A DNA stretch of 48,040 bases from a virus (taxonomy: Duplodnaviria; Caudoviricetes): positions 1 through 48,040 of the IMG/VR virus record IMGVR_UViG_3300025267_000020. The stretch is one strand, 5' to 3'. Numbering within the stretch: the stretch's first letter is position 1; each line of letters starts with the position of its first letter. Both the position numbers and the translations under genes were made by a program. The notes below the pieces were generated by a model. That model was not told where the DNA came from and did no database searches. It saw only the letters and a program-made list of their open reading frames with translations. This document shows, piece by piece, positions 1-45,034 of this stretch.

Positions 1-1
1 C

Positions 2-1306
2 CACTAGCGCGATCCCTTTCAGCGTCAGCCCGAATGCCACCACCGCCGTCGCCGCCATCCCTAGCTGCCCCACGATCACCAGCAGCACTGGAGCGAATGC
101 CGCCAATGCCCCAAATGCGATCGTGGCTTTTTTCGCCATTGGCCCCAGATCCTGGAACCATTGGATCAGCGCCCGCACTGCTGGCACCACATGCGCCTGC
201 ACGATATCCAGCAACTCATTGAACGATGGGGCTAGCTCATCCCCGATCTGCTGCCCCGTGACCACAAATCGCTGCTTGAGTTTTTCCCAGGCAAACCCCG
301 CCGCATTGACACCTTCCTGCTGCTCCTTCAGCGCCTCCCCGAGTGTCCCGGTGGCTCCTTCCATCGCCTCCAGATTGCCCTTGAATTTCTCCGCCTGCAC
401 GCCCGCGATCCCGGCAATGAAATCCCAGGACTCCGTGGAATCAAACAGCTTCGCCATCTCCAGGGTATTGCCACCCGTCTGCGTAGTCAGCGCCTCCAGC
501 GTCCCCTGGAATCCCAGCGTTTCAATCGCTGCCTCACCCGTCTTAAACCCCAACCGGTCCAGCGCCACAAACATCGCGTCTGACGGTTTCTTGAGTCCCA
601 CCAGCGCCCCACGGTACTGGGTAGACACTTCCGCTGCCCCACCAGTCACTCCCGTCATCGTGGCAAATACCGCGTTCAATTCCTCCTGCGTGATCTTCAA
701 TCCAGATGATGAAATGGCAACCTTTCCGATCGCCCCTGCCAACTCAGGGAAACTCGTCTGCCCCAGCTTGACCGTGGTGAACGCCAGATCCGCTGCCTGC
801 CTCACCCCCTCCGCTGTGGTGGTTCCGTACGCTTTCGTGACTGCGCTGGTGAGTGCAATGGCATCGGATGTGGTTGCCATCCCCGCCGCCGCCGCCTCCA
901 CACTGGTTTTCAGGATCCCCGCCGTGTCAGCTCCATCTCCAAATGCCGAAATAACCTGATACAGCCCCTCCGAAATATCCCCGGTTGATTTCCCCGTTTC
1001 CAGCGCCATATCCTGCACGGCTGTTTTTAGTTCTTTTACACGCTCCACGTTCCCAGGGATCAGCGTTGCCACGTTCGCCATTGACTCATTGAGATCCGTG
1101 GAGAATTTAAACGCTGCTGCTGCCGCCCCGACCATCGGCAACGTGACCCCGGCAGACAACTGGGTGCCCACCCGCCGCGCACTTTTGGAGATCCCTGCCA
1201 GCTTCGCCGTGGCCCCCTTTGCGCCCTCCATCGCCTTCCGCAGCTGTGGGGTAAACTCATCCCGCAGCCGGAACAACGCATCGATCGTGCCCACGTTTAC
1301 AGACAT
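2..1306 (-). CDS. tape measure protein, allele A (TP901-type; 5' part, runs off window start)
   Basis: Not in ORF track. ATG at 1306 reads MSVNVGTIDALFRLRDEF...MANVATLIPGNVERVKELKTAVQD...FTTVKLGQTSFPEL, collinear with 39404..43300. Confidence 0.9.
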   Translation of the reverse strand, partial: MSVNVGTIDALFRLRDEFTPQLRKAMEGAKGATAKLAGISKSARRVGTQLSAGVTLPMVGAAAAAFKFSTDLNESMANVATLIPGNVERVKELKTAVQDMALETGKSTGDISEGLYQVISAFGDGADTAGILKTSVEAAAAGMATTSDAIALTSAVTKAYGTTTAEGVRQAADLAFTTVKLGQTSFPELAGAIGKVAISSSGLKITQEELNAVFATMTGVTGGAAEVSTQYRGALVGLKKPSDAMFVALDRLGFKTGEAAIETLGFQGTLEALTTQTGGNTLEMAKLFDSTESWDFIAGIAGVQAEKFKGNLEAMEGATGTLGEALKEQQEGVNAAGFAWEKLKQRFVVTGQQIGDELAPSFNELLDIVQAHVVPAVRALIQWFQDLGPMAKKATIAFGALAAFAPVLLVIVGQLGMAATAVVAFGLTLKGIALV

Positions 1307-1596
1307 TACTCCCCCTTCACGATCTCCACTTCGTTCCGGATCACATCCTCGATCATTGGCACATCATCCAACTTTTCTCCCTTGGACATGTTGTCAAATC
1401 TCGACTTTGCTGCCGCGTATACACGCATCCGCATGATCTCGAAAATCAGCCGCCTATAATCTTGCTCCAGCTCCGCGATCGCCACGCTGGGAGTGCAGTG
1501 GAATTCCTCACAGATCCGCGAAATAATCCACGCCGATGGTGCCTCTGCTCCCGGCACGCCGTTCAGCGCACGATGCAAAGCCTTTAAACGTTTTTT
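1306..1596 (-). CDS. tail assembly chaperone, -1 frameshift extension (lambda gpT-like), allele A
   Basis: Lacks a good independent start. Entered by -1 slip at A-AAA-AAC (1590-1596), giving AKKRLKALHRALNGVPG; lies between chaperone and tape measure. Confidence 0.75.
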   Translation of the reverse strand, partial: KKRLKALHRALNGVPGAEAPSAWIISRICEEFHCTPSVAIAELEQDYRRLIFEIMRMRVYAAAKSRFDNMSKGEKLDDVPMIEDVIRNEVEIVKGE

Positions 1597-1982
1597 GCTG
1601 CCTCCTCATCCTCCAGTGGATTCCGATCGCAAATCTCCGTCACTAACCAGCGGGCTGTGCGACTGTCCAGATCCCGGATCGATGCTGGCGTCGGCTTTTT
1701 GTCGTAAGACCACCCCACCACCGCCTTCCCGATCAACGTCTCCCAGTCGTACGATTCCACCCGATCCCGTTCCTGCCCCTCCTCACCGTCCGTCTGTTTT
1801 TTAGACGATCGCATAATCGCCTCAAACACATCCCCGCCCATCTCCCGCACGTCCGCCACGCCCTTCCGCTGCCGGACTTTCCCCGCCTCCTCCAGCGCCG
1901 TAAATGACAGCTTCCGCAGCTCGACCCACTGCCCCGCTTCGTGTGGTATTTCCACCTTTTCGATAATCTCTGAAACTAGCAT
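1584..1982 (-). CDS. tail assembly chaperone (lambda gpG-like), allele A
   Basis: AGGAGG RBS, position upstream of tape measure, VVGWSYD motif, homologue at 43581..43976. Confidence 0.8.
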   Translation of the reverse strand: MLVSEIIEKVEIPHEAGQWVELRKLSFTALEEAGKVRQRKGVADVREMGGDVFEAIMRSSKKQTDGEEGQERDRVESYDWETLIGKAVVGWSYDKKPTPASIRDLDSRTARWLVTEICDRNPLEDEEAAKNV

Positions 1983-1991
1983 GATCCCTCC

Positions 1992-2447
1992 TTATAGTTG
2001 TCCCGCCTTGAATGTTTCCAGCACCGCCGCAATCCCCGCCGCAAACTCCTGCTCCATCGCCTTTGCCTCCTCCTCCACGACCGACGCCAGGAAACGCGCC
2101 TGCCCACGTTTTTCGTATTCCCGCCGGACCCCCTTTGATGGATAGTACACGCCCATACCCTCATGCGACAGTGACAGATCCTCATGGATCCTTAACGCAT
2201 ACAACGCCGCTGCGCCGCCCGCCGTCCACCGCACCTGTGGCCCGCGCTTGAGCATTTTGGCTGGCTCTGGCCGCACCGTGCCCCGCAAATCCCCAGACAT
2301 CACTGGGGTGCGCTGCTGCATCTGCTCCGCTCGTGGCTCCGCGATCGTATTCAGCACCCGCACCGAATGCTCCCCGACCGATCCTGCGAGTTTATGCAGC
2401 GCCCGGATCAACGCCTCCGCATCCACCGTCATGCCCGTGTCAGCCAT
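1992..2447 (-). CDS. HK97 gp10-like neck/tail-completion protein, allele A
   Basis: TPVMSGDLR...YALRIHE...GQARFL motifs typical of the family; start approximate. Confidence 0.65.
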   Translation of the reverse strand: MADTGMTVDAEALIRALHKLAGSVGEHSVRVLNTIAEPRAEQMQQRTPVMSGDLRGTVRPEPAKMLKRGPQVRWTAGGAAALYALRIHEDLSLSHEGMGVYYPSKGVRREYEKRGQARFLASVVEEEAKAMEQEFAAGIAAVLETFKAGQL

Positions 2448-2448
2448 C

Positions 2449-2496
2449 ACAAAAAACAAACGGCAGACCGACAGCCACCGCCATCGCTCTGCCGTT
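2449..2496 (-). terminator. hairpin/terminator downstream of pqqA-like gene, allele A
   Basis: AACGGCAGAGCGATGGC-GGTG-GCTGTCGGTCTGCCGTT stem followed by TGTTTTTTG; structure retained in allele B. Confidence 0.7.
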
Positions 2497-2517
2497 CGCC
2501 CCCCCCCAAAAAAACAC

Positions 2518-2589
2518 TCAATCCTGCGTTACATACAGAGATACTTCCATATTCAACGCGATCGGCTGTGCTGTTGGTTTAGTCCACAT
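2518..2589 (-). CDS. pqqA: PqqA-like pyrroloquinoline quinone precursor peptide (23 aa), allele A
   Basis: MWTKPTAQPIALNMEVSLYVTQD: N-terminal MWxKP, E15xxxY19, AGGAG RBS, conserved at 44534..44605. Confidence 0.8.
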   Translation of the reverse strand: MWTKPTAQPIALNMEVSLYVTQD

Positions 2590-2603
2590 ATACCTGCTCC
2601 TTT

Positions 2604-3020
2604 TTAGGCTTCTGTTGCTGCGCCAGATGGCCGGAACGTGGCCCGCACAACGTGCAGCGAATCCCGATCCAGCACCCGCTCATAATCGACGATCCACCCT
2701 TCCACCGTGGTCGTCTTCGATCCGCCGTAGGTCACCACCAGCGTCTTCTGCTGATCCGCTGGCCCGTTTGCCACATCGCCCAGCACGGCATCCGTGGTGT
2801 TGCTGGTGTCGTCGTACCACGCTTCGATCGAAATGTCATCCATCGATCGCACGCCCGTGCTCAGCGACTCCTTCCACGAATCCCCGAAGCCCGTGGAGTC
2901 CACCATGCCTGCGTTGATTTTAATCCCGCCAAAACTGGTAATGTACTGCGACAGATTCCGCGCTGTGCCGCCGCTGTCGTCCAGCGTAATCGCTACTGAG
3001 CTTGGACCGTATTTCGCCAC
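2604..3020 (-). CDS. major tail tube protein, allele A
   Basis: 138 aa beta-rich, DSTGFGDSWKESLSTGVRS motif; 136/138 identical to 44618..45034. Confidence 0.75.
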   Translation of the reverse strand: MAKYGPSSVAITLDDSGGTARNLSQYITSFGGIKINAGMVDSTGFGDSWKESLSTGVRSMDDISIEAWYDDTSNTTDAVLGDVANGPADQQKTLVVTYGGSKTTTVEGWIVDYERVLDRDSLHVVRATFRPSGAATEA

Positions 3021-3035
3021 AATTCCCTCCCTTAC

Positions 3036-3755
3036 CTACCCACGATAAAAGCCCAACATGAACGTGAATGATGGACTCGACCCGCCCACTGTGAAATTCG
3101 CACGGACGTACCGATTGACCGTGCCCGTCACCGTTTTCCGTTCCGCCCCCAGCGCGGTGGCTTGCGTCATCGAAATCAGATCCGCCCAGCTGGAATTATC
3201 CGCTGAATGCTGCACCTTCGCATCCAGGGTGGGGCTTGATCCACTAACTGCCGTAATCTGCAAATACGCAGATCCCCCATCAGAGGAGGAGGCAGTCTGA
3301 TCCTGAGACGCGGAATTCCCCGTGGCGGTTTCCGCCCCCAGCGCATGCAGGATCGTCCCATCCTCGACCGCGCCAGAAATCGTATATGTGCAATTCAGTT
3401 TGTGCAGCGCATCCTTCTCGATCAGCCGATCGACCTGCCCCCCAAACGCGCCTTCAAACCCCGTGAAATCCGTGCCGATCGTCCCGCCCGCTGGAGCCAC
3501 TGACACGATCTGCGATGTGGCCTCATTCCCCACCAGCGCCGTCACCACGGAATTCGTCGCATCATCAAACCAACCAGATTGCGTGAGCGTAGCAGACCGC
3601 ACCCCCACTGGCGTAGCTTCCGCCCACGCATCCCCCAGCGATCCCGTGGATTCTGTGGTCGTCTGCACCTTGTACGTCAGCGTTGAAATCACCCCAGCCA
3701 GCGACCGCCCACCGACCAATATAAACCCAACGCTACTCGCTCCGTATTTCGCCAT
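3036..3755 (-). CDS. tail-tube-like paralogue with C-terminal beta-sandwich domain, allele A
   Basis: Shares MAKYG start and ESTGSLGDAWAEATPVGVRS motif with the neighbouring tube gene; extra C-terminal domain (VQHSADNSSWADL...RYVRA). Confidence 0.65.
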   Translation of the reverse strand: MAKYGASSVGFILVGGRSLAGVISTLTYKVQTTTESTGSLGDAWAEATPVGVRSATLTQSGWFDDATNSVVTALVGNEATSQIVSVAPAGGTIGTDFTGFEGAFGGQVDRLIEKDALHKLNCTYTISGAVEDGTILHALGAETATGNSASQDQTASSSDGGSAYLQITAVSGSSPTLDAKVQHSADNSSWADLISMTQATALGAERKTVTGTVNRYVRANFTVGGSSPSFTFMLGFYRG

Positions 3756-3779
3756 CAGTCAATCCTCCCCCACCGATAG

Positions 3780-4013
3780 CTAGTCAGCATCCGCAGCAGC
3801 CCCGTCATCCGCTGTGATATAGCCATCTTTCTGCAGCCATTTTTGTGCGGATTTCGGTAGCCCCTCACAGACCGCACCAGCCTCCACGCGAATCTCGGAG
3901 ATCGAGGCACGATCGTCCGCCGTCAATTTCGACACACCGCCAGCCTTTTTAATCAGCGCCAGCCCATCCGCGTCAGGATAATTCAGCCCCACCACTGCCC
4001 GATACACCTTCAT
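3780..4013 (-). CDS. small virion-region protein, allele A
   Basis: Start MKVYRAVVGLNYP set by homologue 45793..46020 and ATGA overlap. Confidence 0.7.
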   Translation of the reverse strand: MKVYRAVVGLNYPDADGLALIKKAGGVSKLTADDRASISEIRVEAGAVCEGLPKSAQKWLQKDGYITADDGAAADAD

Positions 4014-4132
4014 GGCTTCTCCGTTCTTTCTGCGCCGCACACCTTACACAGCACGATCGACACGCCCCCGAATCCCGCATGCTCGTGCTGCTTGTCGCTG
4101 CCTGCTCCGCACTTCGTGCATGGCCTGATCAT
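4010..4132 (-). CDS. 40-aa zinc-ribbon microprotein, allele A
   Basis: MIRPCTKCGAGSDKQHEHAGFGGVSIVLCKVCGAERTEKP; ATGA overlaps at both ends; homologue 46017..46139. Confidence 0.75.
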   Translation of the reverse strand: MIRPCTKCGAGSDKQHEHAGFGGVSIVLCKVCGAERTEKP

Positions 4133-4527
4133 GATGGATCCTTGACGAGTCTGGCATTTAGCGCATAGACTGGCCGCTCACTCCGATCCACTTTTAGCAG
4201 GAATGGCGGCGTCGGTTCAATCTGCTCATAAAACACACCAGACAGGGATTCTGCATCAACTCGCCCCAGCGCATCCGATGCCGCCTGCGCATTCGCCCGC
4301 GCCGTGTCATAACTGGCCGCACGCGATAGCACCTGAATCCCTGGAAACTCCCGCCCGATCCCGGCTGCGCCAAACTCCTTCTCCCCCGCTGGCCCACCCG
4401 TCAAAATCACCGCGATCGCAGTGTCTGGCACCGTCTCCGGCAGCGCATCCTCAAACAGATCCGTGCCCACAGCCGTCGCCACACTCTGCGCCACTAGATA
4501 CGCCGTCACTTCCGCCATAGTAGCCAT
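4129..4527 (-). CDS. tail terminator / minor capsid-type neck protein, allele A
   Basis: FPGIQVLSRA..YDTARANA motif, neck position, homologue 46136..46534. Confidence 0.7.
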   Translation of the reverse strand: MATMAEVTAYLVAQSVATAVGTDLFEDALPETVPDTAIAVILTGGPAGEKEFGAAGIGREFPGIQVLSRAASYDTARANAQAASDALGRVDAESLSGVFYEQIEPTPPFLLKVDRSERPVYALNARLVKDPS

Positions 4528-4889
4528 TACGCAAAATACAACACTGACACATACGGCTGATCCGCCGAATCCACCATTGCATCACACCGGAGCAGTGGCC
4601 GGACCACCGATCCCGGCAGCGTAATTTTGTCCTGTGGATCGAATACGGTTTTCCCTAACACCACCAGCTGCGTGGTGGATGTCCGTTCATTCCCGCGATC
4701 GTCCAGTACACGCGCCACCACGTCATGCAGCAGCCCCGTCATGGTGACCGCTGACCCACGAGATGGCCTGCCATTTTTATCCAGGGTGGCGGATGTCGGC
4801 TCCCGCGTAAACGTCACCTGCATCCCGCCGGAATTGGTCACGCTGTGCGCCACAGATACGGCACTATGGATCGCATTCGCAATGCTCAC
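4527..4889 (-). CDS. head closure/stopper protein, allele A
   Basis: GTG start overlapping the previous stop, set by homologue 46534..46896; neck position. Confidence 0.65.
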   Translation of the reverse strand: MSIANAIHSAVSVAHSVTNSGGMQVTFTREPTSATLDKNGRPSRGSAVTMTGLLHDVVARVLDDRGNERTSTTQLVVLGKTVFDPQDKITLPGSVVRPLLRCDAMVDSADQPYVSVLYFA

Positions 4890-5413
4890 GTCCGCACCAG
4901 CCACGCAGTTAATTGCTGCCGCTTCCGCAGGGTATACACCCAACTCGGAGCCAGCAAAAAAAACACCGCATCAGGGACCACCTTTGGCCCGCCGCGCCCA
5001 GAAAACTGCAAATTAACTGGGCCAGCCTTTAGCCCCGTGATCCCCTTGGTGGATATCGCATCATCCGCCATGCGATCCTCAGCGATCACCTGCCTCGCAA
5101 ATTCCGCCGTGGCATCTCGGAGTCCCGCAGGCACCGCATCCGAATCCAGCCCGTACCCGTTCCGATCCCACATCCCAGTCCTGGGCCAGTTCAACCGCTG
5201 CACGGAATCCGCTGCCGCCCCCGTCCAGTCCACATGCTGATCCAGCAGCCGCGTGGACATCAGCAACGCCTGATCTTTTTCGTCTCCGGATGCACTCGAC
5301 CACGTTGTGCCGGATTGCGGATGATCGGCATCATACTGATCCGCATCCGCCCGCGTGCAGTAGGTGTTTGCGTTTGCCGCGCCCGCCGTCGCCACCAGCG
5401 TAGACACCGCCAT
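4886..5413 (-). CDS. head-tail adaptor (DnaT-like family of phage neck proteins), allele A
   Basis: ANANTYCT...ADADQY...QALL...QRLNWPR motifs. Confidence 0.75.
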   Translation of the reverse strand: MAVSTLVATAGAANANTYCTRADADQYDADHPQSGTTWSSASGDEKDQALLMSTRLLDQHVDWTGAAADSVQRLNWPRTGMWDRNGYGLDSDAVPAGLRDATAEFARQVIAEDRMADDAISTKGITGLKAGPVNLQFSGRGGPKVVPDAVFFLLAPSWVYTLRKRQQLTAWLVRT

Positions 5414-5571
5414 CAGTCACCGACCTGCCTGCGTACCGGTTTCCGTATCGTGGCCCGTCCCGCTTTCTTCTGTCCTGGCTTCGCATGCTGCTCTGGATCA
5501 AAATCCGCCGCATTGATCACCAGCGCATTCCCCGCCCGATCCACCACCGCGATCGTCTCAACTTCTGCCAC
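5413..5571 (-). CDS. 52-aa protein downstream of capsid gene, allele A
   Basis: GGAGG RBS and GTG start; LVINAADFDP motif, basic tail; homologue 47420..47569. Confidence 0.7.
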   Translation of the reverse strand: MAEVETIAVVDRAGNALVINAADFDPEQHAKPGQKKAGRATIRKPVRRQVGD

Positions 5572-5656
5572 GCTCACCTCCACCAGCATGGCGAATGCCG
5601 TGGCCAGCCTCTCCAGTACCAACCACGGCACTCCCCCTCGCTGTCCGCTGAGACAG

Positions 5657-6772
5657 TTAGCCCGCGATCCGTGCAGCCAGTTCCCGCCGGACCAGCTGTG
5701 CGCCATACAGAATGTCGAAACTGTACCGCGTTTGCTTGTGCTGGCGAGTGACCTCCAGCCGCAGCGTCAACCCGCTATCAGGATCAAACGTCGATTCGAC
5801 AATGGTGCCCAATCGTCGATCCTCATCCGTCGCCGCCAGTGGTCGTGTCGCAAACGCAAACGCATCCCGATGAAAAGCCAGATTAACAACATGGCTAGCC
5901 TTGAACGTGAGTGCTGCATTATCCGCCCAGGCAACTTTTGCCGTTGGGTACATCGTGATTACGGTTGCCGTGGAGCTTGCAACCGTATACGTTTGCGTGT
6001 CGCCTGCAACGGTGAACACATCACCAGCCGCTGGCGCGGTTCCGCCACCGTCCCATGTCAACGTAGTGTCACCGACAGACACAGACGCATCGTTGACAAG
6101 GATCGTCCCTGCACCCGTCGTGGTGTGTGTCGGAACGTTCTGACTCATCGCCCACAACGAACCGAGCTTGCGACCGATCTGACCGTTAGCGATGACACCA
6201 TCCCCGCCACCGTACGAGGCATCCTGAAACGCTCGCAAGTTGATCGCATTCGCCTCAGCATCAGGATCGATGACACAGAAACGCGGCTCCATTGGCGCAA
6301 GTTGATTCGCCAACGCTTTTCGCGCATTCGTGAACGCGGTTAAATCTGACGCAAATGGCGTGGTTCCAGCCGTTCCCGCATACCCATAAATCCCGGTGTA
6401 CTTGCCCCAAATATAGCTATCGACGTTGTTTGCCAACGCCTTGATCGCTTCTGACGCTTGCATCGGAATCGTGCCATCCATCACCTCAAGACGCTCTTTG
6501 TCTGTGAGGTAGAATGGAGCCTCGTACCACTGATCCAACGCAATCGAAACTTTGGTTGGTGCTGAATCTGAATTGGCTGGTGGCGTGATCGCCGGACTCA
6601 CAGCAGACGCTGTGATCGCTGACGGAATAGGGACATCAATTGTACTGCCTTGCTCACCGGCCATCTCGTCATATGACCGATTGACCACTCTTGGCATCAC
6701 GACTTGCTCACGAAGAGCCAGCAGCCCTTGAGCCAAGAGTTTGGGTATAACCTGCGTCCAAGTGTTAGCCAC
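5657..6772 (-). CDS. major capsid protein (P22 coat/gp5-like)
   Basis: 371 aa, GSTIDVPIP...LAFHRDAFAFATRPL...FDILYG motifs; downstream of scaffold gene. Confidence 0.9.
   Translation of the reverse strand: MANTWTQVIPKLLAQGLLALREQVVMPRVVNRSYDEMAGEQGSTIDVPIPSAITASAVSPAITPPANSDSAPTKVSIALDQWYEAPFYLTDKERLEVMDGTIPMQASEAIKALANNVDSYIWGKYTGIYGYAGTAGTTPFASDLTAFTNARKALANQLAPMEPRFCVIDPDAEANAINLRAFQDASYGGGDGVIANGQIGRKLGSLWAMSQNVPTHTTTGAGTILVNDASVSVGDTTLTWDGGGTAPAAGDVFTVAGDTQTYTVASSTATVITMYPTAKVAWADNAALTFKASHVVNLAFHRDAFAFATRPLAATDEDRRLGTIVESTFDPDSGLTLRLEVTRQHKQTRYSFDILYGAQLVRRELAARIAG
5913..6037. repeat. 125-bp exact direct repeat (internal copy of window end)
   Basis: Identical to 47916..48040 by eye; offset 42003. 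Confidence 0.95.
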
Positions 6773-6974
6773 TGTATTTCCCCTTTTTTAGATATCCATA
6801 ATACCTCCCACCGGGAGTACAAAACGGCTCCGCCGTTATGCGACAGAAACAACCACGACATTCAACCAAAAACCAATCGCAGCACAGCCACAATCAGTCA
6901 CTCGAAAACTTTTCCGTTACCATTAAAACATAAAAAAGACAACACGACAACACCAGAAAAAAAAACAACACCCA

Positions 6975-7008
6975 TAAAAAAAGAGCTGTCATTTTTTACA
7001 GCCCTTTT
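6975..7008 (-). terminator. intrinsic terminator closing the small-gene island
   Basis: AAAGGGCTGT-loop-ACAGCTCTTT followed by T run. Confidence 0.65.
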
Positions 7009-7030
7009 AAATATCGTCGAAACCAAATTT

Positions 7031-7126
7031 CTACAAAAATTCAAGATTTACTTCTACGTCTCGATCCCAACCTTTATTGGTAGACCCACAAAGCAGCCCG
7101 ACCGCGTTGTGCGTTTCGTTAATCAT
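7031..7126 (-). CDS. putative leaderless 31-aa peptide
   Basis: MINETHNAVGLLCGSTNKGWDRDVEVNLEFL; ATG 7 nt after the -10 box, as in other cassettes. Confidence 0.35.
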   Translation of the reverse strand: MINETHNAVGLLCGSTNKGWDRDVEVNLEFL

Positions 7127-7132
7127 GAATAA

Positions 7133-7201
7133 ATAATATACTGCAATTCACCGCACGTCAAGAAAAAAAATGCGCCATCTCAAAAAAAGAAACAGCGCAT
7201 T
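7133..7201 (-). promoter_or_regulatory. terminator-promoter cassette 1
   Basis: AATGCGCTGTTTC-Tn-GAGATGGCGCATT hairpin, T tract, TTGACG-17-TATTAT. Confidence 0.8.
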
Positions 7202-7253
7202 GCACCCAACGAAACACGACGCCCAGCACACACCTCCTGAACCGTACCAGCGA

Positions 7254-7472
7254 TCACCAACCAAGATCCTCATACATTTCAACAATGTCATTGATGCTTT
7301 TTGTAACTCGCTCAGACTCCCCATCAACCGCGTTATTAAATGCCGACAAATCGAAATCAGGATCACGCCTCTTCAACATTTCCCCTAAATCCTGAGTGAT
7401 TCGATCTTCACTTGTCCGCTCATTGTCCGACAACACCTGCACAATTCCATCAACGTATTCATCGATTGCCAT
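7254..7472 (-). CDS. small hypothetical phage protein
   Basis: GGAGG RBS; C-terminal RRDPDFDLSAF motif resembles small phage proteins. Confidence 0.6.
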   Translation of the reverse strand: MAIDEYVDGIVQVLSDNERTSEDRITQDLGEMLKRRDPDFDLSAFNNAVDGESERVTKSINDIVEMYEDLGW

Positions 7473-7486
7473 TTTTTTATTCCTCC

Positions 7487-7897
7487 CTAGACATAAACCG
7501 GTTCTGCGCCACAGTGATCACACTCTTCCCAAATCTGTGATCGTCGCGTTTCCGTTTGCCGACACGCCCTGCAACCTTGATTCACATACGATCTCGCCAC
7601 TGGACGATCTTGACCCTCGCTCGCAACCTCTTCCGCTTCATCCTGATTCACACGAGTCATCAAAATCAAATCGCTTTTACTGGATGCCGTTTCAACAATT
7701 TGCACGTCGTCATTCTGCCAAACGATCTTCGTAACAACAGCCTCCCACGTTTTCCCCGCTCGCGTCCGAACCACAACCCCATCACCAACAATCGCACACC
7801 GCCCCTCCGACACCGCAATTCTTGCGCCCCATTTCCCGCTACGAAGCTTGGTTGGCGTTGCTTCCAAATCGTCAAATTCGTTAATGTCATGAATCAT
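7487..7897 (-). CDS. hypothetical protein with SH3-like N-terminus and C-terminal CxxC/CxxC
   Basis: AAAGGA RBS behind cassette 2; TKLRSGKWGAR motif; CRAC/CDHC. Confidence 0.7.
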   Translation of the reverse strand: MIHDINEFDDLEATPTKLRSGKWGARIAVSEGRCAIVGDGVVVRTRAGKTWEAVVTKIVWQNDDVQIVETASSKSDLILMTRVNQDEAEEVASEGQDRPVARSYVNQGCRACRQTETRRSQIWEECDHCGAEPVYV

Positions 7898-7936
7898 GTT
7901 GTTTCCTTTGTTGTTCCTTTTCTTTATCGTGTGTAT

Positions 7937-8006
7937 ATACTATCAGTGAGGTTTACTGTTGTCAAGAAAAAAAATGCGCCATTCCAAAAAAAAGAAACAG
8001 CGCATT
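7937..8006 (-). promoter_or_regulatory. terminator-promoter cassette 2
   Basis: Same hairpin as cassette 1, T tract, TTGACA-17-(TGA)TAGTAT. Confidence 0.8.
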
Positions 8007-8028
8007 CCAGCCGAGAAAAAAAACAAGA

Positions 8029-8856
8029 TCACCCAAGCGGATTCGTGTTTGCCGTTCGCGTAACCTTCACTTTTCCTTTGGCGATATTTTCCAGATTTCG
8101 CGCAAACTGACGCCCAGACGGATCAACCAAATTGCCCGAATCCAAACGCGGTTCTGGACCGGCTGAATCCTGATGCCCAGTCGATATCGACGGCTTGAAC
8201 AAATGCTCACCACCTGACCGTTGCAACCCTTGCACCCATTCATCAATCGTGTAGGGTTGATCTGGACGAGAAGTTGAAAACTTGACTGCGCCATCACTCA
8301 ACACGGCAAGGCTTCCGTTATGCAATTCAAAACCAGCACTGACCGCACGGTTCAACACATCGTCAATCGCCTCGGTTCGCACACCAGCATCCAGCGCGGT
8401 TTTGCTCACCAACGTACGAAATGTTGCCTTGTCTAATTCTGCCTGTGCAGACGTTTCACGCTTTCTCGACTCATCAAGCTGTGCTTGTATCGGTTCAACG
8501 GACGCCTGTACAGCGGCTTGAATTTGCGACGTTAAATCCTCATTCGTGACCACTCTCGCATCCTTTTTCGTAAGCCTCTTTTTATCCTCAAGCATTTCAT
8601 TATACACATTCACATCAACGCCGTTATACCGCGAAGACACCTCGTGCAACTTATCTGACAGATCGGTTTTTTCTTTCATTAACGAAACGTTCGTGTCTCG
8701 AAACTCAGACACCTTCGCACCTAACTCAACCTCACGCTGTGTCTGACCCTCAATCGATAAATACCATTTCCCATCAGACTCCACATAATGGTCCTTTACG
8801 CCTTCAGGCAAACCAGACAACTCATCCACCGTCTCAACAATACTTTTCAGCGCCAT
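8029..8856 (-). CDS. capsid scaffolding protein
   Basis: KDHYVESDGKWYL, coiled coil, HLFKPS motif; between MuF and capsid genes. Confidence 0.75.
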   Translation of the reverse strand: MALKSIVETVDELSGLPEGVKDHYVESDGKWYLSIEGQTQREVELGAKVSEFRDTNVSLMKEKTDLSDKLHEVSSRYNGVDVNVYNEMLEDKKRLTKKDARVVTNEDLTSQIQAAVQASVEPIQAQLDESRKRETSAQAELDKATFRTLVSKTALDAGVRTEAIDDVLNRAVSAGFELHNGSLAVLSDGAVKFSTSRPDQPYTIDEWVQGLQRSGGEHLFKPSISTGHQDSAGPEPRLDSGNLVDPSGRQFARNLENIAKGKVKVTRTANTNPLG

Positions 8857-8869
8857 TGCAACCTACCTT

Positions 8870-9109
8870 TCAATCCTCACCAAACAATTTTCGCTCAGCC
8901 TCAAGAGCTTTCACCGTCAACGCTCCAATGATCTCACGTTTATTCCCGCCAGCTTTTATTTTCTTTTTCGCTTCATTGATTTGTGCTTGCGACGGCAACA
9001 CGCCCACCAGCATCGTTCCGTCGTACGGTTGCGTGAAATACTCAAGTGTTTCCTGAGCTGTCCTCTTTGACACCTGCTGTCCTTGATTTAATTCTTCATC
9101 ATCAGCCAT
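8870..9109 (-). CDS. small protein downstream of MuF-ART, candidate immunity protein
   Basis: 79 aa, 12 nt after the toxin-domain stop; role inferred from position only. Confidence 0.45.
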   Translation of the reverse strand: MADDEELNQGQQVSKRTAQETLEYFTQPYDGTMLVGVLPSQAQINEAKKKIKAGGNKREIIGALTVKALEAERKLFGED

Positions 9110-9121
9110 TCGCCTACCCCT

Positions 9122-12100
9122 TTATGGTTCTATTGGAGCTTTGCCAGTAGGAACCAACTGAATCACACGCCTTCTTTTCGCTTTTTGGACTAGTTTCCCA
9201 GCATCATCACGTACCCACATCATAAACAATCGCGTTGTTACATTTGCGACTCTGAATTCCTGACCATGAGGCATCAAAAATTCGTCCTCACCTCTGTTTT
9301 CAGAAATATCATTAACGTACGCACCATAAGAAGGATGAATCTCCATCAATGGAAATTCATGTGAAAAACCAGCCTCCTTAAATTCAGGAGAATCAGCACC
9401 CTTAGCAAAGGTATTGTAATCAAGCCCACTCGATTGGAAACCGTTCAATTGCAACACATCCCCAGGCAACACCTCATCATTACGCATTAAGTTATATTTC
9501 CGCATCAAAGAATCAGGAGCAGCACTCGCCAACCGTTCCTCCATATCTTTTCCACGGACCAACGTCCCAGCAAACTCAGAATTCCTCCACACAACCAAAT
9601 CATCTGGTGGCTTTGGTGCGTCCAATAAAAACCGTTGGACGTTCTTTGCATCCCTGTCCAACACGGTTGGATGTAATCGTAATTCCCTATTCCAATTTCC
9701 GAACGCCGCGCCTGTATATTCCTTCACTGAACCCATCACACGACTACCATCAGCCGAATTTTCAACTTTTTGAATATACGGGCTATACTTCGCCGTCATT
9801 TTTTCTTTATGAACGTCTGATTGCCTTCTAATCGTCTTGGAATCCCAAAACTGAAAATCTCCATCAACAGCATTAGTGATCGATGCTTCCTTGCTTGCCC
9901 ACTGGATCGAATAAAACTCTGGTGGCGGTTTATACTCTCGCCCCTGCAACAACGTTTCTTTCGCTACAAACCACCGTTGCTCTATTTTTTTGTTCGCAAG
10001 ATGCGCGTACTCATCGACACGATTGGTCGCAGCGTACCAACTATTTTTCGATCCAGTCCATTGTTGACTCAACGTGGTTTTACCAGTCCAAGGAACATCG
10101 TAAAAACCAGATTCATCAACATCCTTGATCAATCGCATATAACCATCATCCAGCCATCCCCAACTAACCGAACCAGGAACAGAACGATTGTGCATTTTTG
10201 CAATACGCAACAACACAGACTCTGGCAAAAACAGATTTTGATTGGAAGCCAATTTTCTCACAATACCCAACGAAGCCACTTCACCACTCGTCAATCCAGA
10301 TGACATCTTTTCCCAATTCAAACCGTTGTAATATTCCAGCGATGAATCAAAACCCTTTCCTATATTAGAAAATTTATGTGGTGCAAACTCATCACCCATA
10401 CCAAAGACAGCATCAAGCTCAACCTCTAACGCCGCCTTTGTGCCTTTATGCCCCCCCGGAGGAGAACCGTACGGATATTTCTCAATGATATTTTCCGATT
10501 CTGTTTTCCCTGGTATGTCTGATTTCAATTCAAGCTTTTTTGTTGGTAACGGTGAAGCCTTCTTTGGTTTAATCTCAGGACTCAAATTGTCCAGCGATTT
10601 TAACGATTTTGCCTTTAACAACTGAACCGCAGCATCGGAAAACTCAGGCACCTGATAATGTATAGACCATAAATTTTTAAATACATCATCAAGCAAAACG
10701 CCGTGGCCTTGTTGCGTTGCCATTAAATCAGAAAGTTTCTTTACACGAAGAGACGAAATGAAATCCGGCAACCCTTTATTTGGCATGTTTTTCCAAACGA
10801 AAGATTCAGCCTTTTTTACAAGCAACCCCCTTTTCACTTTTGAAATAACTTCAGCCGGTGTCATATCCATCAATTGAGATTTCGTAAATACCTTTTGCCA
10901 CTCTGATAAATATTCGGCATTACTCTCATCCCAAAACGCTTTCATTGATTTCTCAACGGCATCTCTAGTCTCTGGATCAAACAAGCCCATCAAGTTAGAT
11001 GAGATTTTATTACCAGCCTTATCAGTTGCACCGCTAAACGCCTTGGCATTCACAAAGGCATCTGATTCAATCTTGAATTTTTCAAATACTTTTGCATCGA
11101 TCTTAGAAAATGCGCCTCCAAGAACACCCTCACCACTGATTTCCGTTGCAACATCCTTGGCTTTTCTCTCAAACACGCTCAATGGTTTCTTGCTTTTTAT
11201 CTCTGCCTTGGCCGCAGATTTTTCAACCGATTGCACCGCCTTGGCTTTTTTCTTTTTGAAGGTATTTGATTTTTTTGCCGCAGCAAGATTGGCGGTATTT
11301 TTTTGCTCGCTCACCACTCCCGGATCAGTGACCGCCGCCTTGCTTGTTCTCCGCTCCAATCCCACCGCGCAACGACACAACGGATGCAATGGTGGAGAAG
11401 GCATTACCCCCTCACCAGACTCACCCTCAAAATTCCCTTGCACCTCAATCCGTTGCTGCCCCATCGAATTACACTTAGGACACAACCGATCATCAGGAGT
11501 CACGATCCATCGTTTTTGGAATTCTGACGGATTGAGTGTTTTGTTTTCTATCGCCTGATCCCACAATAATTGCTGACCGCGATTCGCCGCTCGCATGGAT
11601 TCCGTTACCGCGATCATGTCAGCACGACCAGCAAGGACTTGTTTGCGTTTTTTATTAAATAGCTTTTCAACTTTACCCGCAGACAAACCCTTTTCAAATA
11701 ACTTGCCTCTGTATTTTTCAAGCGAGGCTGATTGCAATGGTGTCAAACCAATAAACTGCTTGATCTCATTGACTGTTTCATTCGGTGACAATTTACCATT
11801 CGACGCCTTTTCAATAATCGAACGAACCGTTTTCAACTGGCTCTTGTTGATATTTTTTATCAGATTCCCAGTTGATGATCTCGCATACTTCACAGCCAGT
11901 GGATTGGAGGCAATGAGTTTTTCAGGACTATCACCGATAAGTTTTTTTAGTGTATCCGCTTGAGAATTTGCACCGGCAACAGTTGTGTTTAATGTCGCCT
12001 CAAATATCCCATCACTATGCTCAGACCATTGAGTATTGATGTGGTCGGACACTTCCCATTGCGCGGCTTGAAAGTTTTTCGATTTGATCTGTTGCTTGAT

Positions 12101-12271
12101 CTTATCGGCATCGATTTTTGAAATCGCACCAGACCCCTCAAGACCCCCAACAATGGACTTGATGAAAAACCTGCCATTCTTGTCGGCAACCTTGTGCGTT
12201 TCTTTCCAGTCACCGTAAATATATTGCCAATCAGACGGATCTGCTTTAGGAGCCATTACGATCAACCACAA
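9122..12271 (-). CDS. MuF/SPP1 gp7-type minor head protein fused to C-terminal ADP-ribosyltransferase
   Basis: MuF: RADMIAVTE, KRWIVTPDDRLCPKC, PPLHPLCRC. ART: YTG..F..WNRELR, LVVWR, GFQSS, EDEFLMPHGQEFRV. Confidence 0.85.
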   Translation of the reverse strand: MWLIVMAPKADPSDWQYIYGDWKETHKVADKNGRFFIKSIVGGLEGSGAISKIDADKIKQQIKSKNFQAAQWEVSDHINTQWSEHSDGIFEATLNTTVAGANSQADTLKKLIGDSPEKLIASNPLAVKYARSSTGNLIKNINKSQLKTVRSIIEKASNGKLSPNETVNEIKQFIGLTPLQSASLEKYRGKLFEKGLSAGKVEKLFNKKRKQVLAGRADMIAVTESMRAANRGQQLLWDQAIENKTLNPSEFQKRWIVTPDDRLCPKCNSMGQQRIEVQGNFEGESGEGVMPSPPLHPLCRCAVGLERRTSKAAVTDPGVVSEQKNTANLAAAKKSNTFKKKKAKAVQSVEKSAAKAEIKSKKPLSVFERKAKDVATEISGEGVLGGAFSKIDAKVFEKFKIESDAFVNAKAFSGATDKAGNKISSNLMGLFDPETRDAVEKSMKAFWDESNAEYLSEWQKVFTKSQLMDMTPAEVISKVKRGLLVKKAESFVWKNMPNKGLPDFISSLRVKKLSDLMATQQGHGVLLDDVFKNLWSIHYQVPEFSDAAVQLLKAKSLKSLDNLSPEIKPKKASPLPTKKLELKSDIPGKTESENIIEKYPYGSPPGGHKGTKAALEVELDAVFGMGDEFAPHKFSNIGKGFDSSLEYYNGLNWEKMSSGLTSGEVASLGIVRKLASNQNLFLPESVLLRIAKMHNRSVPGSVSWGWLDDGYMRLIKDVDESGFYDVPWTGKTTLSQQWTGSKNSWYAATNRVDEYAHLANKKIEQRWFVAKETLLQGREYKPPPEFYSIQWASKEASITNAVDGDFQFWDSKTIRRQSDVHKEKMTAKYSPYIQKVENSADGSRVMGSVKEYTGAAFGNWNRELRLHPTVLDRDAKNVQRFLLDAPKPPDDLVVWRNSEFAGTLVRGKDMEERLASAAPDSLMRKYNLMRNDEVLPGDVLQLNGFQSSGLDYNTFAKGADSPEFKEAGFSHEFPLMEIHPSYGAYVNDISENRGEDEFLMPHGQEFRVANVTTRLFMMWVRDDAGKLVQKAKRRRVIQLVPTGKAPIEP

Positions 12272-12275
12272 AAAT

Positions 12276-12572
12276 TCAACGCGACTTTAAGATCAATCGA
12301 GAATCAACCGTTAAACATCGACCACACAAAAAACCAACAACCTCACGAAATTCAGATCCATAAACATAAAGCGTGAGAATCCTGTTGCCGGTCAACAATC
12401 GCTCAGCATCAAAATCCACACGCCCCATGCAACGCAAACAATTGAAAAAATCTACAAACTCATCATCATGGAAAAAATCAGCAGTATCTTTCCAACTGTC
12501 GATATCATCAGCCCGATACGTGGTGACCCAATCAGACGGATCACCCGTTTGTGTTTCTCGTCTTGATGACAT
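12276..12572 (-). CDS. hypothetical protein (CxxC/CxxC)
   Basis: Fits operon packing; CLRC and CGRC. Confidence 0.45.
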   Translation of the reverse strand: MSSRRETQTGDPSDWVTTYRADDIDSWKDTADFFHDDEFVDFFNCLRCMGRVDFDAERLLTGNRILTLYVYGSEFREVVGFLCGRCLTVDSRLILKSR

Positions 12573-12816
12573 TCTGCAAACTCACAACCGCCTTAATGAC
12601 ATCCCGTGTCGCCTCATTCACTGCATCATCGCTCAATATATCCTTGTCTGCTCCAGCCTCAACGGTTTTCAAAATAGAATCAACCATCGTGACCGCTGCA
12701 TCCTCTTTCGCTGAACCCTTCCCCTTAACAAACCGCTCAACCGATTGCACAGACGTAAAAATATACGGCAACATTTTCATTCCGATTTCAAGAAACCCCA
12801 TCACTAACAGCCTCAC
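12541..12816 (-). CDS. hypothetical amphipathic helical protein
   Basis: Overlaps upstream stop; KGSAKEDAAVTMV motif of small phage proteins. Confidence 0.6.
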   Translation of the reverse strand: MRLLVMGFLEIGMKMLPYIFTSVQSVERFVKGKGSAKEDAAVTMVDSILKTVEAGADKDILSDDAVNEATRDVIKAVVSLQNVIKTRNTNG

Positions 12817-13975
12817 TTTCTTTGATTGTCTGACGCCGACTCTTCACCAACAAACTCACGCGGATAATACTTGTTTAGATACGCCTCAGCCAACTCATTG
12901 GCAGTAATCGGTTTTAAGAAAAAATTAATTGGCACACCAGCATCACCAGCAATCGCCTTTTCAACGTAATCCTCCATTGCCGTCATCAACGAATTCGTAT
13001 CAATGACCTTGTTGTTTTTATCATCGTACTCACCAAGAGAGGATTGCGTTGAATCTGTCTGTTCTCGTTTCAAGATATGAACAAGACCCACAAAGCTTGA
13101 ACCGTATGTTGCACCGCTCAACAGGTTCATCACGTTTGCGGTTTTCGATCCGTCTGACTTGATCGCCGCTTCCAGCGACTTCCGATCATCAACGACAATC
13201 GGATCATCTTTAAACATCGCATTCCACGAACGCACAGCCTTGTCCACATCCATCACGTACGGAGCAAACACTTGCGCTTGCTTGTGCGTGCAATTTGCCG
13301 TGATAACAATCGTACCCTCAACGTCATGATGCTTGTGCTGAGAAATTGAAACGTCTTTTGCTTGTCCTGCAACCTTAGTGCTTACAGACGGTGACAAGAA
13401 CCCGGAACACTGCGCGTTGACATAACTTGCAATAGAATTTGAGCTTGTCGAACTACCGTCTTGATTCACTTCCGATCTGAAGTACTGTGCATCCAACACC
13501 ATCGAGTCAGAAGACAACGGAAGCTTTTTGATCTCACTCGCGTTGTAATCAATCGGGCTTTCCACAGAATCACCGATTTGGCTTTGGCTGTCCTCGCCCT
13601 TCTCATCGACTCCGGTTGCCGCTTTTATCGCAGCCTGAGCAGTCACCGTCGCACTTGCCAGATCAGACGCCGCAACCACAACGCGATAATCACTAACACC
13701 TGCTCACGAGCCTCACCCATCTCAGCTTTTAATTTGTTGATCTCACCAGTCAACTCATCAAATTCTTTGCTGGTCGTATCAACGCCCATATTCATCAGCT
13801 CTTGCGTTGTCATGTCCAGACTGCGTTTCGCAAGAATCAACGCATTCAATTGCCGCTGTGCATTGTCAACAGGCTGCTGCGCCTTTGCCTCTTTTTTTAA
13901 TCTCTCTATTTTTTCAAGACTTACAATATTCCCTAGCACCAAAGTTGGATCAAACGGTATTGTTGTTGGCATCAC
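12813..13975 (-). pseudogene. gene split into ORFs 13643..13975 and 12813..13679 by a 38-nt insertion
   Basis: Removing 13672..13709 joins KAEMGEA to ASDLASATV in frame, giving one 374-aa ORF. Confidence 0.65.
13673..13717. repeat. two short segments (22 and 23 nt) identical to 17845..17866 and 17796..17818, in swapped order
   Basis: caaccacaacgcgataatcact and aacacctgctcacgagcctcacc occur at both loci. Confidence 0.9.
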
Positions 13976-13986
13976 ACCTTCCTTTT

Positions 13987-15417
13987 TTATTCATCGCCTA
14001 TAGTCGAGCCACCGACATCCTCAGAACCAGAATTTATCAACTCTCGTTCTTCACCCAACGTCCGCCCTGATTCAATCCACTCACCTTGCTGTAAATTCCA
14101 AAACAGTGTTTCATAACTAACCGCGCCAGATTGCCATGCACCAACCAACGCTTCTGCCTCTTCTGGTGGAATCCTCGTGTCGAAAAAATCCTTGTTTAAT
14201 GCAAACGACAGATCCGACACCTCACCATCCATCCCCGCCCACCATGCGTGCCACTTCATCAACTGCTCCATCCCCGCATCAAACGTCACTGATAACGCAG
14301 ACAGTACCGAATACTCAGCCGCTGATTTAATCCGCAACGCTTCAGCCGTCTCACCAACACGCTTCGGTTCATCGATAATCCTTGCACCCAACGCAGCCAT
14401 CCGCGCTTGCTTCGCAGTGATTAAACGCTCCAATGATCCAAGCCCGTCGCCGGTATACTCCAGCATCCCAGCTCTGGCAGTTGGCTCAGGTAACACCCAC
14501 GCCTTAGAACTTCCAATAGGCAATTCCCCATCTAACTCCACACCGGAAACCCACGGTGTTGGAAGCGATGTCAAATGTGCGCCATGTTCATGATCAGCAC
14601 TTGTCCGATAATGTGACAAATTGACATCAACAAGATCCAACAATGGCGGCTTTGAAACTTCCGAACCAAGCGAACTAGGACCGAAAAATTGGAACGGAAT
14701 AAACCGCAATGGCTCACCACGTCTCAACGGAATAAACGGATCGCCTACTTCCTCCCACCTGTCCGTATTTTTTAAACGCTTATCACCAACAGCCTGCTGG
14801 AATCTTCTAATCACGTATACAGCGGAATCCGTTTCCGGATCGAGCAATTGCAACACTCGCACTTGAGGCACAGCAACCCTCACCCACGGATCATCAGAAT
14901 TCGCAACCTCGACCGTTTCAGACAACACGACGCATGAAAGTTTTTCACGCCCACCAACGATCACACTATCCCAGCTCAAAATATCCTCAGCCCGTCTTGA
15001 AATCCAATACGGACGAGACACCCCCATGCCAGACGGTGCAGTATCAGTCATTTCAACCTGCACGCCCCACCGCCCAACAATCAACGTTTCCTGAAATCCA
15101 GACAACGCGAACGTTCGTATCGATTTCGCAGTCAACGTCACATCGTCCAAATCAGACAACAATTCTTTGGGAAATATCACGCTGGGCCGACTGCGAAAAA
15201 CACACCCGATCATCCCCATGACCGTCCGCGCCGTGGCATTGTAAAATTCAGCACGCGCCAAATACGAAGAATAATCACCGGACACTGAAGGCAAATACTT
15301 GATCCCCTGCTTTTTTACTGCATCAGAACCGTCATAACAATCACGGCAACGTTGCCACTTCGACAACGCTTCCTTGTATTCAGACCTTGGTGTATTAACT
15401 GGCATCGTTTCCCCCAA
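13987..15417 (-). CDS. portal protein (DUF4055-like)
   Basis: YLARAEFYNATART, KPPLLDLVDVNLSHYRTSAD; downstream of terminase. Confidence 0.9.
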   Translation of the reverse strand: MGETMPVNTPRSEYKEALSKWQRCRDCYDGSDAVKKQGIKYLPSVSGDYSSYLARAEFYNATARTVMGMIGCVFRSRPSVIFPKELLSDLDDVTLTAKSIRTFALSGFQETLIVGRWGVQVEMTDTAPSGMGVSRPYWISRRAEDILSWDSVIVGGREKLSCVVLSETVEVANSDDPWVRVAVPQVRVLQLLDPETDSAVYVIRRFQQAVGDKRLKNTDRWEEVGDPFIPLRRGEPLRFIPFQFFGPSSLGSEVSKPPLLDLVDVNLSHYRTSADHEHGAHLTSLPTPWVSGVELDGELPIGSSKAWVLPEPTARAGMLEYTGDGLGSLERLITAKQARMAALGARIIDEPKRVGETAEALRIKSAAEYSVLSALSVTFDAGMEQLMKWHAWWAGMDGEVSDLSFALNKDFFDTRIPPEEAEALVGAWQSGAVSYETLFWNLQQGEWIESGRTLGEERELINSGSEDVGGSTIGDE

Positions 15418-15507
15418 CGTGATATGCTTGTCAAGTTGTTCTGTTCATTCTCTCATCCATTGCGAAGAGGTAATTTCTTGCCGGTTACCTCTTCGCCCCT
15501 CCCCCCC

Positions 15508-15774
15508 TCACCCATCACGATCCACAACCAAATCCCCAACAGCAGCACGCTCAGCAGCAGCACGCCCCAACCCGCCATCGTACTCACGAATGGCCGCACG
15601 CTCTTCAACAAACTCCACATCATCTGCTGGCAAGGCACTTGTCATCGCCTTAAAACCAGGATTCAAAAAACCATTGATCTTGTCTTTTCGCCACTGTTCA
15701 CACGAGTCACACCAGCCCAAGCGGTTTTCAGGATTCCGCTCATTTTTCTCACAACGTTTGCAAACTTCCATCAC
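15508..15774 (-). CDS. small hypothetical phage protein
   Basis: EERAAIREYDGGL.R..AE motif; N-terminal Cys pairs. Confidence 0.7.
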   Translation of the reverse strand: MMEVCKRCEKNERNPENRLGWCDSCEQWRKDKINGFLNPGFKAMTSALPADDVEFVEERAAIREYDGGLGRAAAERAAVGDLVVDRDG

Positions 15775-17763: not shown

Positions 17764-17767
17764 ATCC

Positions 17768-18373: not shown

Positions 18374-18379
18374 AACAAA

Positions 18380-19834: not shown

Positions 19835-19836
19835 CT

Positions 19837-25062: not shown

Positions 25063-25068
25063 GTGAAG

Positions 25069-44455: not shown

Positions 44456-44469
44456 AGATCACCCAATAG

Positions 44470-44510
44470 CACAAACGGCAGATCGACAGCAACGCCATCG
44501 ACCTGCCGCT
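44470..44510 (-). terminator. hairpin downstream of pqqA-like gene, allele B
   Basis: GCGGCAGGTCGATGGC-GTT-GCTGTCGATCTGCCGT, 16-bp stem. Confidence 0.7.
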
Positions 44511-44533
44511 TACACTTCCCCCCCTTGACAAAC

Positions 44534-44605
44534 TTATGCTTGCGTTACGTACAACGACACTTCCATATTCAACGCAACCGGCTTCGCTGTAGGTTTAGTC
44601 CACAT
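44534..44605 (-). CDS. pqqA: PqqA-like precursor peptide (23 aa), allele B
   Basis: MWTKPTAKPVALNMEVSLYVTQA; TAAGGAG RBS; 20/23 identical to allele A. Confidence 0.8.
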   Translation of the reverse strand: MWTKPTAKPVALNMEVSLYVTQA

Positions 44606-44617: not shown

Positions 44618-45034
44618 TTATGCTTCAGTTGCCGCGCCACTTGGACGGAATGTTGCCCGAACCAAATGCAAGGAATCCCGATCCAATACCCGCTCGTAAT
44701 CCACGATCCAGCCCTCAACCGTGGTCGTTTTCGATCCACCATACGTCACCACCAACGTTTTTTGTTGGTCTGCTGGACCGTTCGCCACATCACCCAATAC
44801 CGCGTCTGTCGTATTGCTCGTGTCGTCGTACCACGCTTCAATCGAAATGTCATCCATCGACCGAACGCCCGTACTCAATGACTCTTTCCACGAATCACCA
44901 AACCCAGTTGAATCCACCATGCCAGCATTGATCTTAATCCCGCCAAAACTGGTAATGTACTGCGACAAATTTCGAGCTGTTCCGCCGCTGTCATCCACCG
45001 TAATCGCTACTGAACTTGGACCGTATTTAGCCAA
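44618..45034 (-). CDS. major tail tube protein, allele B
   Basis: 136/138 identical to 2604..3020. Confidence 0.75.
   Translation of the reverse strand: MAKYGPSSVAITVDDSGGTARNLSQYITSFGGIKINAGMVDSTGFGDSWKESLSTGVRSMDDISIEAWYDDTSNTTDAVLGDVANGPADQQKTLVVTYGGSKTTTVEGWIVDYERVLDRDSLHLVRATFRPSGAATEA

Follow-up and report, generated by a model that had tools for sequence, protein, structure and literature searches.

A phage-borne homologue of acidobacterial PqqA in a siphovirus tail operon, probably a late-made substrate for extra PQQ

The stretch of DNA analyzed here (the window, a 48,040-base virus record of a siphovirus) carries on its minus strand, at 2518-2589, a 23-codon open reading frame (ORF) that translates as MWTKPTAQPIALNMEVSLYVTQD followed by a stop codon. 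The encoded peptide is homologous to PqqA of Vicinamibacterales bacteria; judged from its sequence and setting, the gene was likely captured from a host and its product is probably made late in infection as substrate for extra PQQ. Bacterial PqqA is bound through its leader by PqqD, and a Glu and a Tyr of the peptide are cross-linked by PqqE, after which a protease, PqqB and PqqC complete PQQ (PMC10906245, excerpted text). The ORF has the layout of this functional class, a short peptide (about 22-30 aa) with a W-x-x-P leader and an E-x-x-x-Y core in register, and its ATG lies 14 nt past the stop codon of a 138-aa tail gene (Table 1). An earlier note on this DNA had described the ORF, its AGGAG site and its place after the tail tube gene without giving a strand; all of these hold on the minus strand, as do the ExxxY pair (E15 and Y19 in register) and the late tail operon location, with tail genes on both flanks. 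Across 18 viral and cellular peptides W2, P5, E15 and Y19 are the four invariant columns, a count in which W, E and Y were already fixed by the patterns that fetched the peptides. The gene also stands alone, as that note had it: tblastn at E ≤ 1e-6 gave no pqqB, C, D or E homologue in the window, and pqqB-E are likewise absent from the viral loci L001-L162 and L211-L216, so that the PQQ enzymes must come from the host. No quinoprotein gene was seen in the window phage.

Table 1. Features of the two pqqA loci in the window
Feature	Position	Strand	Remarks
pqqA homologue, acidobacterial (LNMEV[ST]LYVT) type, 23 aa	2518..2589	-	E15 = codon 15, Y19 = codon 19
AGGAG ribosome-binding site	2597..2601	-	7 nt before ATG of pqqA homologue; from sequence
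Major tail (tube)-like protein, 138 aa	2604..3020	-	phrog_10528, E 3.3e-5 (PHROGs); directly upstream of pqqA
Second major tail-like protein, 239 aa	3036..3755	-	phrog_9522, E 4.6e-27
HK97-gp10-like tail component	1992..2459	-	PF04883 E 0.0018, below cut-off; downstream of hairpin
Long hairpin with U-rich tail right after pqqA stop	2450..2498	-	z -6.97; 0 of 200 shuffles as stable
Second allele of pqqA homologue	44534..44605	-	in near-duplicated contig end; missed in the earlier note
Conserved hairpin after second allele	44456..44533	-	z -4.82; 0 of 200 shuffles
Second allele of 138-aa tail tube gene	44618..45034	-	versus 2604-3020: 62 synonymous, 2 non-synonymous codon changes

The two ends of the window are near-duplicates (196-6037 versus 42190-48040, ~6 kb at 70-78% identity), and the second end holds another allele of the ORF, MWTKPTAKPVALNMEVSLYVTQA followed by a stop codon, preceded by AAGGAG. 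The alleles differ by seven synonymous codon changes and a TGA/TAA stop swap versus three non-synonymous changes (pS 0.54, pN 0.07, pN/pS 0.13, Fisher p 3.5e-4, for the two window alleles), with synonymous changes falling at codons 16-19 of the core, a substitution pattern which implies that the ORF is a protein-coding gene under purifying selection. Both alleles are also present on separate contigs (L001/L002 and L003/L004) and, because run X13 in addition contains the two at similar depth, the record most likely represents a circular genome of ~42 kb, with sequences of two strains from the same sample community merged into it. An assembly artefact as the origin of the ORF itself was considered and rejected, given that several independent contigs carry it and that in runs X13, X16 and X17 it lies within a single contig.

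Curated profiles detect the relationship below their thresholds. With Pfam PF08042 the two alleles reached 12.3 and 13.0 bits, short of the gathering cut-off of 21.1, and NCBIfam TIGR02107 (20-bit cut-off) gave no match to the window peptide at E ≤ 10; PqqA was nevertheless the sole Pfam family listed at E ≤ 10 among 24,736, with a match spanning positions 1-19 of 19. The profile check suggested in the earlier note was thus passed at neither curated cut-off, yet it singled out PqqA over its full length. Four canonical viral controls scored 36.6-49.1 bits with TIGR02107 and passed Pfam too. Whole-genome searches of the window with PF08042 and TIGR02107 returned nothing even at E ≤ 10, which reflects the sub-threshold score and not absence of the gene. 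The window peptide is the most diverged of the viral variants, its 12.3 Pfam bits comparing with 15.8-16.7 for the other viral variants of its type and 23.7-35.5 for the cellular ones, seven of seven of which lie above the cut-off among those tested.

Cellular relatives were sought by scanning 185,579 GTDB species genomes with the pattern W-x9-L-N-M-E-[VI]-[ST]-x-Y, which gave 48 loci, 34 of them small ORFs; the other 14 were dropped. At least three of pqqB-E lie within 8 kb in 31 of the 34 small-ORF loci, and all four in 30, whereas none of the 14 dropped loci has two of them, and those neighbors that were tested score above the NCBIfam equivalog cut-offs for PqqB, C, D and E. Closest are 23 loci titled Acidobacteriota (mostly Vicinamibacterales), with 14-15 of 22 residues identical and the same LYVT tail and stop position; the remaining 11 (Planctomycetota, Verrucomicrobiota, Nitrososphaera-like archaea and one proteobacterial bin) have 10-14 identities and a different tail. 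Loci L167 and L171, from bins titled Nitrososphaeraceae or Nitrososphaerales archaea, hold complete or near-complete pqqABCDE operons, the binning being taken as given. Since the GTDB pattern had come from the query itself, we built an independent profile from 14 cellular PqqA peptides found by Pfam alone in the order of UBA2990 (L163), which from the titles of its member loci we take to be Vicinamibacterales. With this profile the window alleles scored 32.0 and 33.4 bits (E 7e-9 and 3e-9), whereas among 1,512 small ORFs of the window no unrelated one exceeded 2.9 bits. A profile of 57 canonical viral peptides gave 26.8 bits for the window ORF, a score that received no weight because the peptides had been fetched with a pattern drawn from the ORF. 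Taken together, the operon-linked cellular kin and the independent profile score identify the ORF as a diverged homologue of acidobacterial PqqA below curated cut-offs. The homology to PqqA claimed in the earlier note is therefore sustained; the enterobacterial (Klebsiella) likeness that it had proposed gives way to the Vicinamibacterales LNMEV[ST]LYVT type as nearest kin.

From the Trp on, the UBA2990 peptide matches the window peptide at 15 of 22 positions and shares its LNMEV-LYVT core and stop position. The UBA2990-type host copy differs in being 24 aa long, with an EIKA/EIRE leader and 23.7-33.1 Pfam bits, and whereas the window pqqA is stand-alone, the host gene follows a MATE exporter gene and precedes pqqC and pqqB on the opposite strand and then pqqD-pqqE (L163 6548-11741 and related loci). 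The MATE protein of this locus may export PQQ. In the window alleles the leader reads TAQP/TAKP at residues 6-9, Pro9 being present in both, whereas host peptides of this type have EIKA/EIRE there; no cellular peptide with the TAQP/TAKP leader was seen among the host sequences found, so that recognition by PqqD is not assured. Either the host is unsampled or the leader has been retuned.

The siphovirus genes recognized in the window, all on the minus strand, are those for terminase, portal, scaffold, capsid and adaptors, two tail-tube-like genes, and those for chaperones, tape measure and endolysin. Within this viral record pqqA has capsid, adaptor, tail terminator and tail genes around it, the setting by which an auxiliary gene is recognized. 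The hairpin that follows it contains a terminator-like site at 2482-2459 and is likely an intrinsic terminator or an mRNA-stabilizing stem; with pqqA thus placed between the tube gene and a likely terminator, expression at the level of the tube protein would be expected. The HK97-gp10-like gene beyond probably has its true start near 2432. The tandem major-tail-like genes have similar N-termini, a layout common to Vicinamibacterales prophages and L139/L146. Further along, a minus-strand gene at 9122-12271 encodes a 1049-aa protein of the MuF head-morphogenesis kind that ends in an ADP-ribosyltransferase domain (PF04233 and PF03496, both above cut-offs), presumably a MuF polymorphic toxin aimed at bacteria, of which the prophage relatives match only about 184 aa. 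Nine intergenic repeats of ~90 bp (7115-7210, 7890-8010, 25040-25130, 26350-26435, 26800-26925, 27095-27185, 28350-28465, 32800-32890 and 33185-33300) align on the minus strand as a T-tract, TTGAC, 17 nt and a TA-TAT-like element, two being flagged sigma-70-like. They are probably copies of a strong early promoter, and one set immediately precedes the capsid gene. The genes at 28487-32468 (minus strand), which include DUF3150-like, 154-aa and AAA-ATPase ones, form a cluster typical of mobile elements; no integrase was found among the 60 window ORFs scanned.

Sixteen relatives of the tail tube gene were found in IMG/VR. The four at 98-99% identity carry the pqqA homologue, whereas among those at 83-90% it is absent after the tube gene in nine of nine testable cases (eight scored for the full gap plus L009, judged on 212 nt; L014 and L015, at contig ends, and L016, a distant phage with another gene order, were left out of the count). 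In the pqqA-less relatives the hairpin comes straight after the tube stop codon and the gap measures 88-140 nt, versus 175 in the window. The pqqA homologue is an accessory gene. Three other phage lineages, unrelated to this one, encode a peptide of the same type: in L139/L146, a siphovirus with another capsid family, pqqA immediately follows the second tube gene and is itself followed by a hairpin; in L138/L149, a DNA-polymerase-bearing phage, it follows a protease gene; and in L278 it follows a terminase gene and encodes a peptide identical to that of UBA2990. L139/L146 supplies the viral synteny that the earlier note had suggested looking for, its pqqA occupying the position next to the tube gene that it has in the window. 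In the stretches compared, L139/L146 and L138/L149 have zero or one of the 60 window proteins in common with the window, and repeated capture of pqqA explains the distribution more simply; for the two siphoviruses (the window and L139/L146), common descent followed by many losses is a less simple alternative. Metagenome loci (n = 19) divided into eight cellular pqq/MATE loci, ten viral loci (two from the window's own contig) and one unassigned locus. Across the scans, 19 of 27, 2 of 10, 14 of 48 and 4 of 12 pattern matches were dropped as not small ORFs.

We also weighed whether the ORF is a recently captured host gene that is merely drifting, or a small tail-associated peptide whose link to PqqA is only historical, as might be suspected from a leader that differs from every host sequence found and from a position inside a structural operon. 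The low pN relative to pS between the alleles, however, speaks for long retention under selection, close relatives build the same tail without the gene, and in two lineages the gene sits outside the tail module (L138, after the protease gene, and L278, after the terminase gene); we regard such an origin as very unlikely. A structural-protein role was likewise weakened as a candidate by the absence of the gene from close relatives.

Conservation of the cross-linked pair bears on whether the peptide is a substrate at all. When E15 and Y19 were left free in the pattern, eight of eight viral small ORFs of this type (12 matches, 4 dropped) and 120 of 120 canonical viral peptides (107 distinct DNA alleles) kept both residues, so that the conservation check named in the earlier note came out in favor of its claim in 128 of 128 peptides. 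The canonical pattern occurs in an estimated 1,600 or so IMG/VR stretches, and 119 of 119 examined were 23-aa ORFs. Because a pure decoy would need neither E15 nor Y19, their retention in all viral hits favors substrate supply. A decoy or tuner would use its W-x-x-P leader to hold PqqD/PqqE but would undergo little or no processing, and so lower PQQ and quinoprotein respiration late in infection; the remodeled leader of both alleles, in which the acidic residues are gone and Pro9 is kept beside a host-like core, and the lowest Pfam score of all the variants are what such a peptide might display. Yet the whole core is conserved and changes synonymously at codons 16-19, a viral copy without E or Y was never found with those positions free, and the L278 peptide, being identical to the host's, fits substrate supply. 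Moreover, PqqD binding is by the N-terminal leader in the excerpted text of PMC10906245, and a decoy should therefore keep its leader, not change it. These observations make a decoy less likely, and we give it only a small chance. A bolder proposal, which we consider unlikely, is that at least four captures of host pqqA took place among phages of marine Acidobacteriota, two of these into the high-expression slot between tail gene and hairpin, and that in the window lineage the leader was rebuilt from EIKA to TAQP in a way that would alter handling by the host maturase. If true, the peptide would be the first case of a phage mimicking a RiPP precursor so as to retune or jam host cofactor assembly for some 70 quinoproteins.

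The host group was approached through the 239-aa tail protein, which has full-length matches (E < 1e-30) in six of 351 genomes of the order of UBA2990 and matches at E ≤ 1e-5 in eight. In control phyla, full-length matches numbered 0 of 221 genomes for the phylum of the planctomycete (seven weak or partial, best 2.4e-20) and 0 of 301 for that of Vibrio (two weak), and 0 of 201 genomes of the verrucomicrobium's phylum matched. Three prophage regions in genomes G281 and G186, both from the family of UBA2990, contain counterparts of 16-18 of the 60 window proteins, arranged in the same order; identities are 64% for the capsid, 53% for the portal and 45-67% for the terminase. Peptide kinship and prophage synteny point to Vicinamibacterales (Acidobacteriota) as the likely host group. 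In the 61 genomes of the UBA2990 family, a DNA search with window positions 1-20000 found the prophage at 63-76% and short pieces at 82-89%, with no spacer-like exact match and no CRISPR spacer or close DNA match to a PQQ producer. The sequencing runs that match the stretch are labeled marine metagenome, 15 of them strongly, of which 12 may be the window's own source.

The host prediction called for in the earlier note is partly supported, in that the likely host group has pqqBCDE, but the prophage-bearing genomes depart from it, since none of the five tested has PqqE above cut-off and the closest prophage hosts therefore may not make PQQ. The prophages of these genomes are without pqqA, and pqqA above cut-off is present in only 26 of the 351 genomes of the order, a pattern that would fit retention of pqqA solely in phages whose hosts make PQQ. 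Five pqqA-bearing candidate host genomes each have one pqqA above cut-off and 69, 74, at least 77, at least 77 and 14 quinoprotein-dehydrogenase-like matches (E ≤ 1e-30), seven of those in UBA2990 passing the TIGR03075 cut-off. The expansion is extreme in UBA2990 (G001, locus L163) and G002-G004, where 69 to at least 77 full-length quinoprotein-dehydrogenase-like genes stand against a single pqqA. The 6.1-Mb contig G186 has 43 quinoprotein-like matches at E ≤ 1e-90 with PqqE and PqqA above cut-off absent, and is likely a PQQ importer; its prophage contains a ~2.9-kb tandem duplication of the tail module.

We propose that pqqA was captured from a Vicinamibacterales-like host and would be co-transcribed with the major tail tube gene, at a high level and late in infection, while the hairpin would damp expression of the genes beyond it. 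The leader of the phage peptide would bind host PqqD, PqqE would cross-link Glu15 and Tyr19, and host PqqD, PqqE, PqqB and PqqC would turn the peptide into extra PQQ, which may keep the periplasmic quinoprotein dehydrogenases, and hence respiration, running during virion assembly. As one peptide is consumed per PQQ, pqqA (72 nt) is the cheapest single gene for lifting flux. Extra pqqAB in Acetobacter raised PQQ by 29%, whereas the whole pqqABCDE cluster raised it eightfold and growth fell (PMC7936290, excerpted text), a difference which suggests that the precursor alone may lift PQQ only modestly. Late expression also leaves little time for a respiratory gain, and a true substrate could serve another benefit, with PQQ freed at lysis feeding PQQ-importing relatives or acting as an antioxidant for phage assembly. 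The existence in the host family of high-demand non-producers such as G186 and the MATE exporter gene adjoining pqqA in the host locus fit this idea, but a gain to other cells would presumably be weakly selected and the MATE protein is only a candidate exporter, and to us the chance of such a benefit seems slim.

Phage-encoded PqqA has a precedent, and the novelty suggested in the earlier note, which knew of no described stand-alone PqqA from a phage, is not upheld. Coutinho et al. 2020 (Microbiome 8:163, PMC7678222, excerpted text) proposed PqqA as an auxiliary gene of the Lake Baikal methylotroph phage VP_266, where, as here, the phage peptide would boost PQQ in the infected host. VP_266 is T4-like, has a predicted Methylophilaceae host and also encodes a methanol dehydrogenase, according to the same excerpts; the window phage, in contrast, is a ~42-kb siphovirus with a likely Vicinamibacterales host, a peptide below HMM cut-offs and its gene in the tail operon. 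Among other articles seen as excerpts, PMC13188868 lists virus-encoded pqqA, PMC11118758 reports host PqqA co-expressed with defense systems, and PMC9004378 mentions PQQ, in the part available, only in the medium. Like the window peptide, those of the cultured Methylophilales phages (Venkman, MEP301/401/402, P19250A and Melnitz) have 23 aa, an MWTKP start, E15/Y19 and a lone gene, and Venkman provides the best phage match (50%, E 4). The Methylophilales phage peptides differ in scoring 36-43 Pfam bits and in an R-[FLY]-G-F-E motif, where the window peptide reads A-L-N-M-E; it lacks R11 and G13, which all 57 of 57 canonical viral peptides share. Canonical pqqA is unannotated or called 'hypothetical protein' in MT375522, OP830906, OP830907, KX815270, MW452941 and MZ577095-8; P19250A carries it, though the excerpted text of PMC7678222 says that such genes are absent there. 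Amplification of the precursor gene apart from its enzymes also has a cellular parallel in the extra pqqA copies of methylotrophs, five dispersed ones in Hyphomicrobium denitrificans (PMC9851590, excerpted text), except that here the extra copy would come from a virus and the host has a single chromosomal one. Our search of the main texts of open-access papers turned up none on pqqA in Acidobacteriota phages. Viral pqqA itself is known; its acidobacterial type is what the papers searched do not contain.

The natural leader variants offer a probe of what PqqD binding requires. No characterized phage of Vicinamibacterales turned up in the searches made, and the 72-nt ORF, unseen by curated HMMs, is usable as a host marker for this order, with which the prophage synteny agrees. 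With this homologue, viral pqqA is no longer confined to phages of methylotrophs but reaches a second phylum, and its repeated capture speaks for PQQ supply being a limit on phage replication in any host that depends on quinoproteins.
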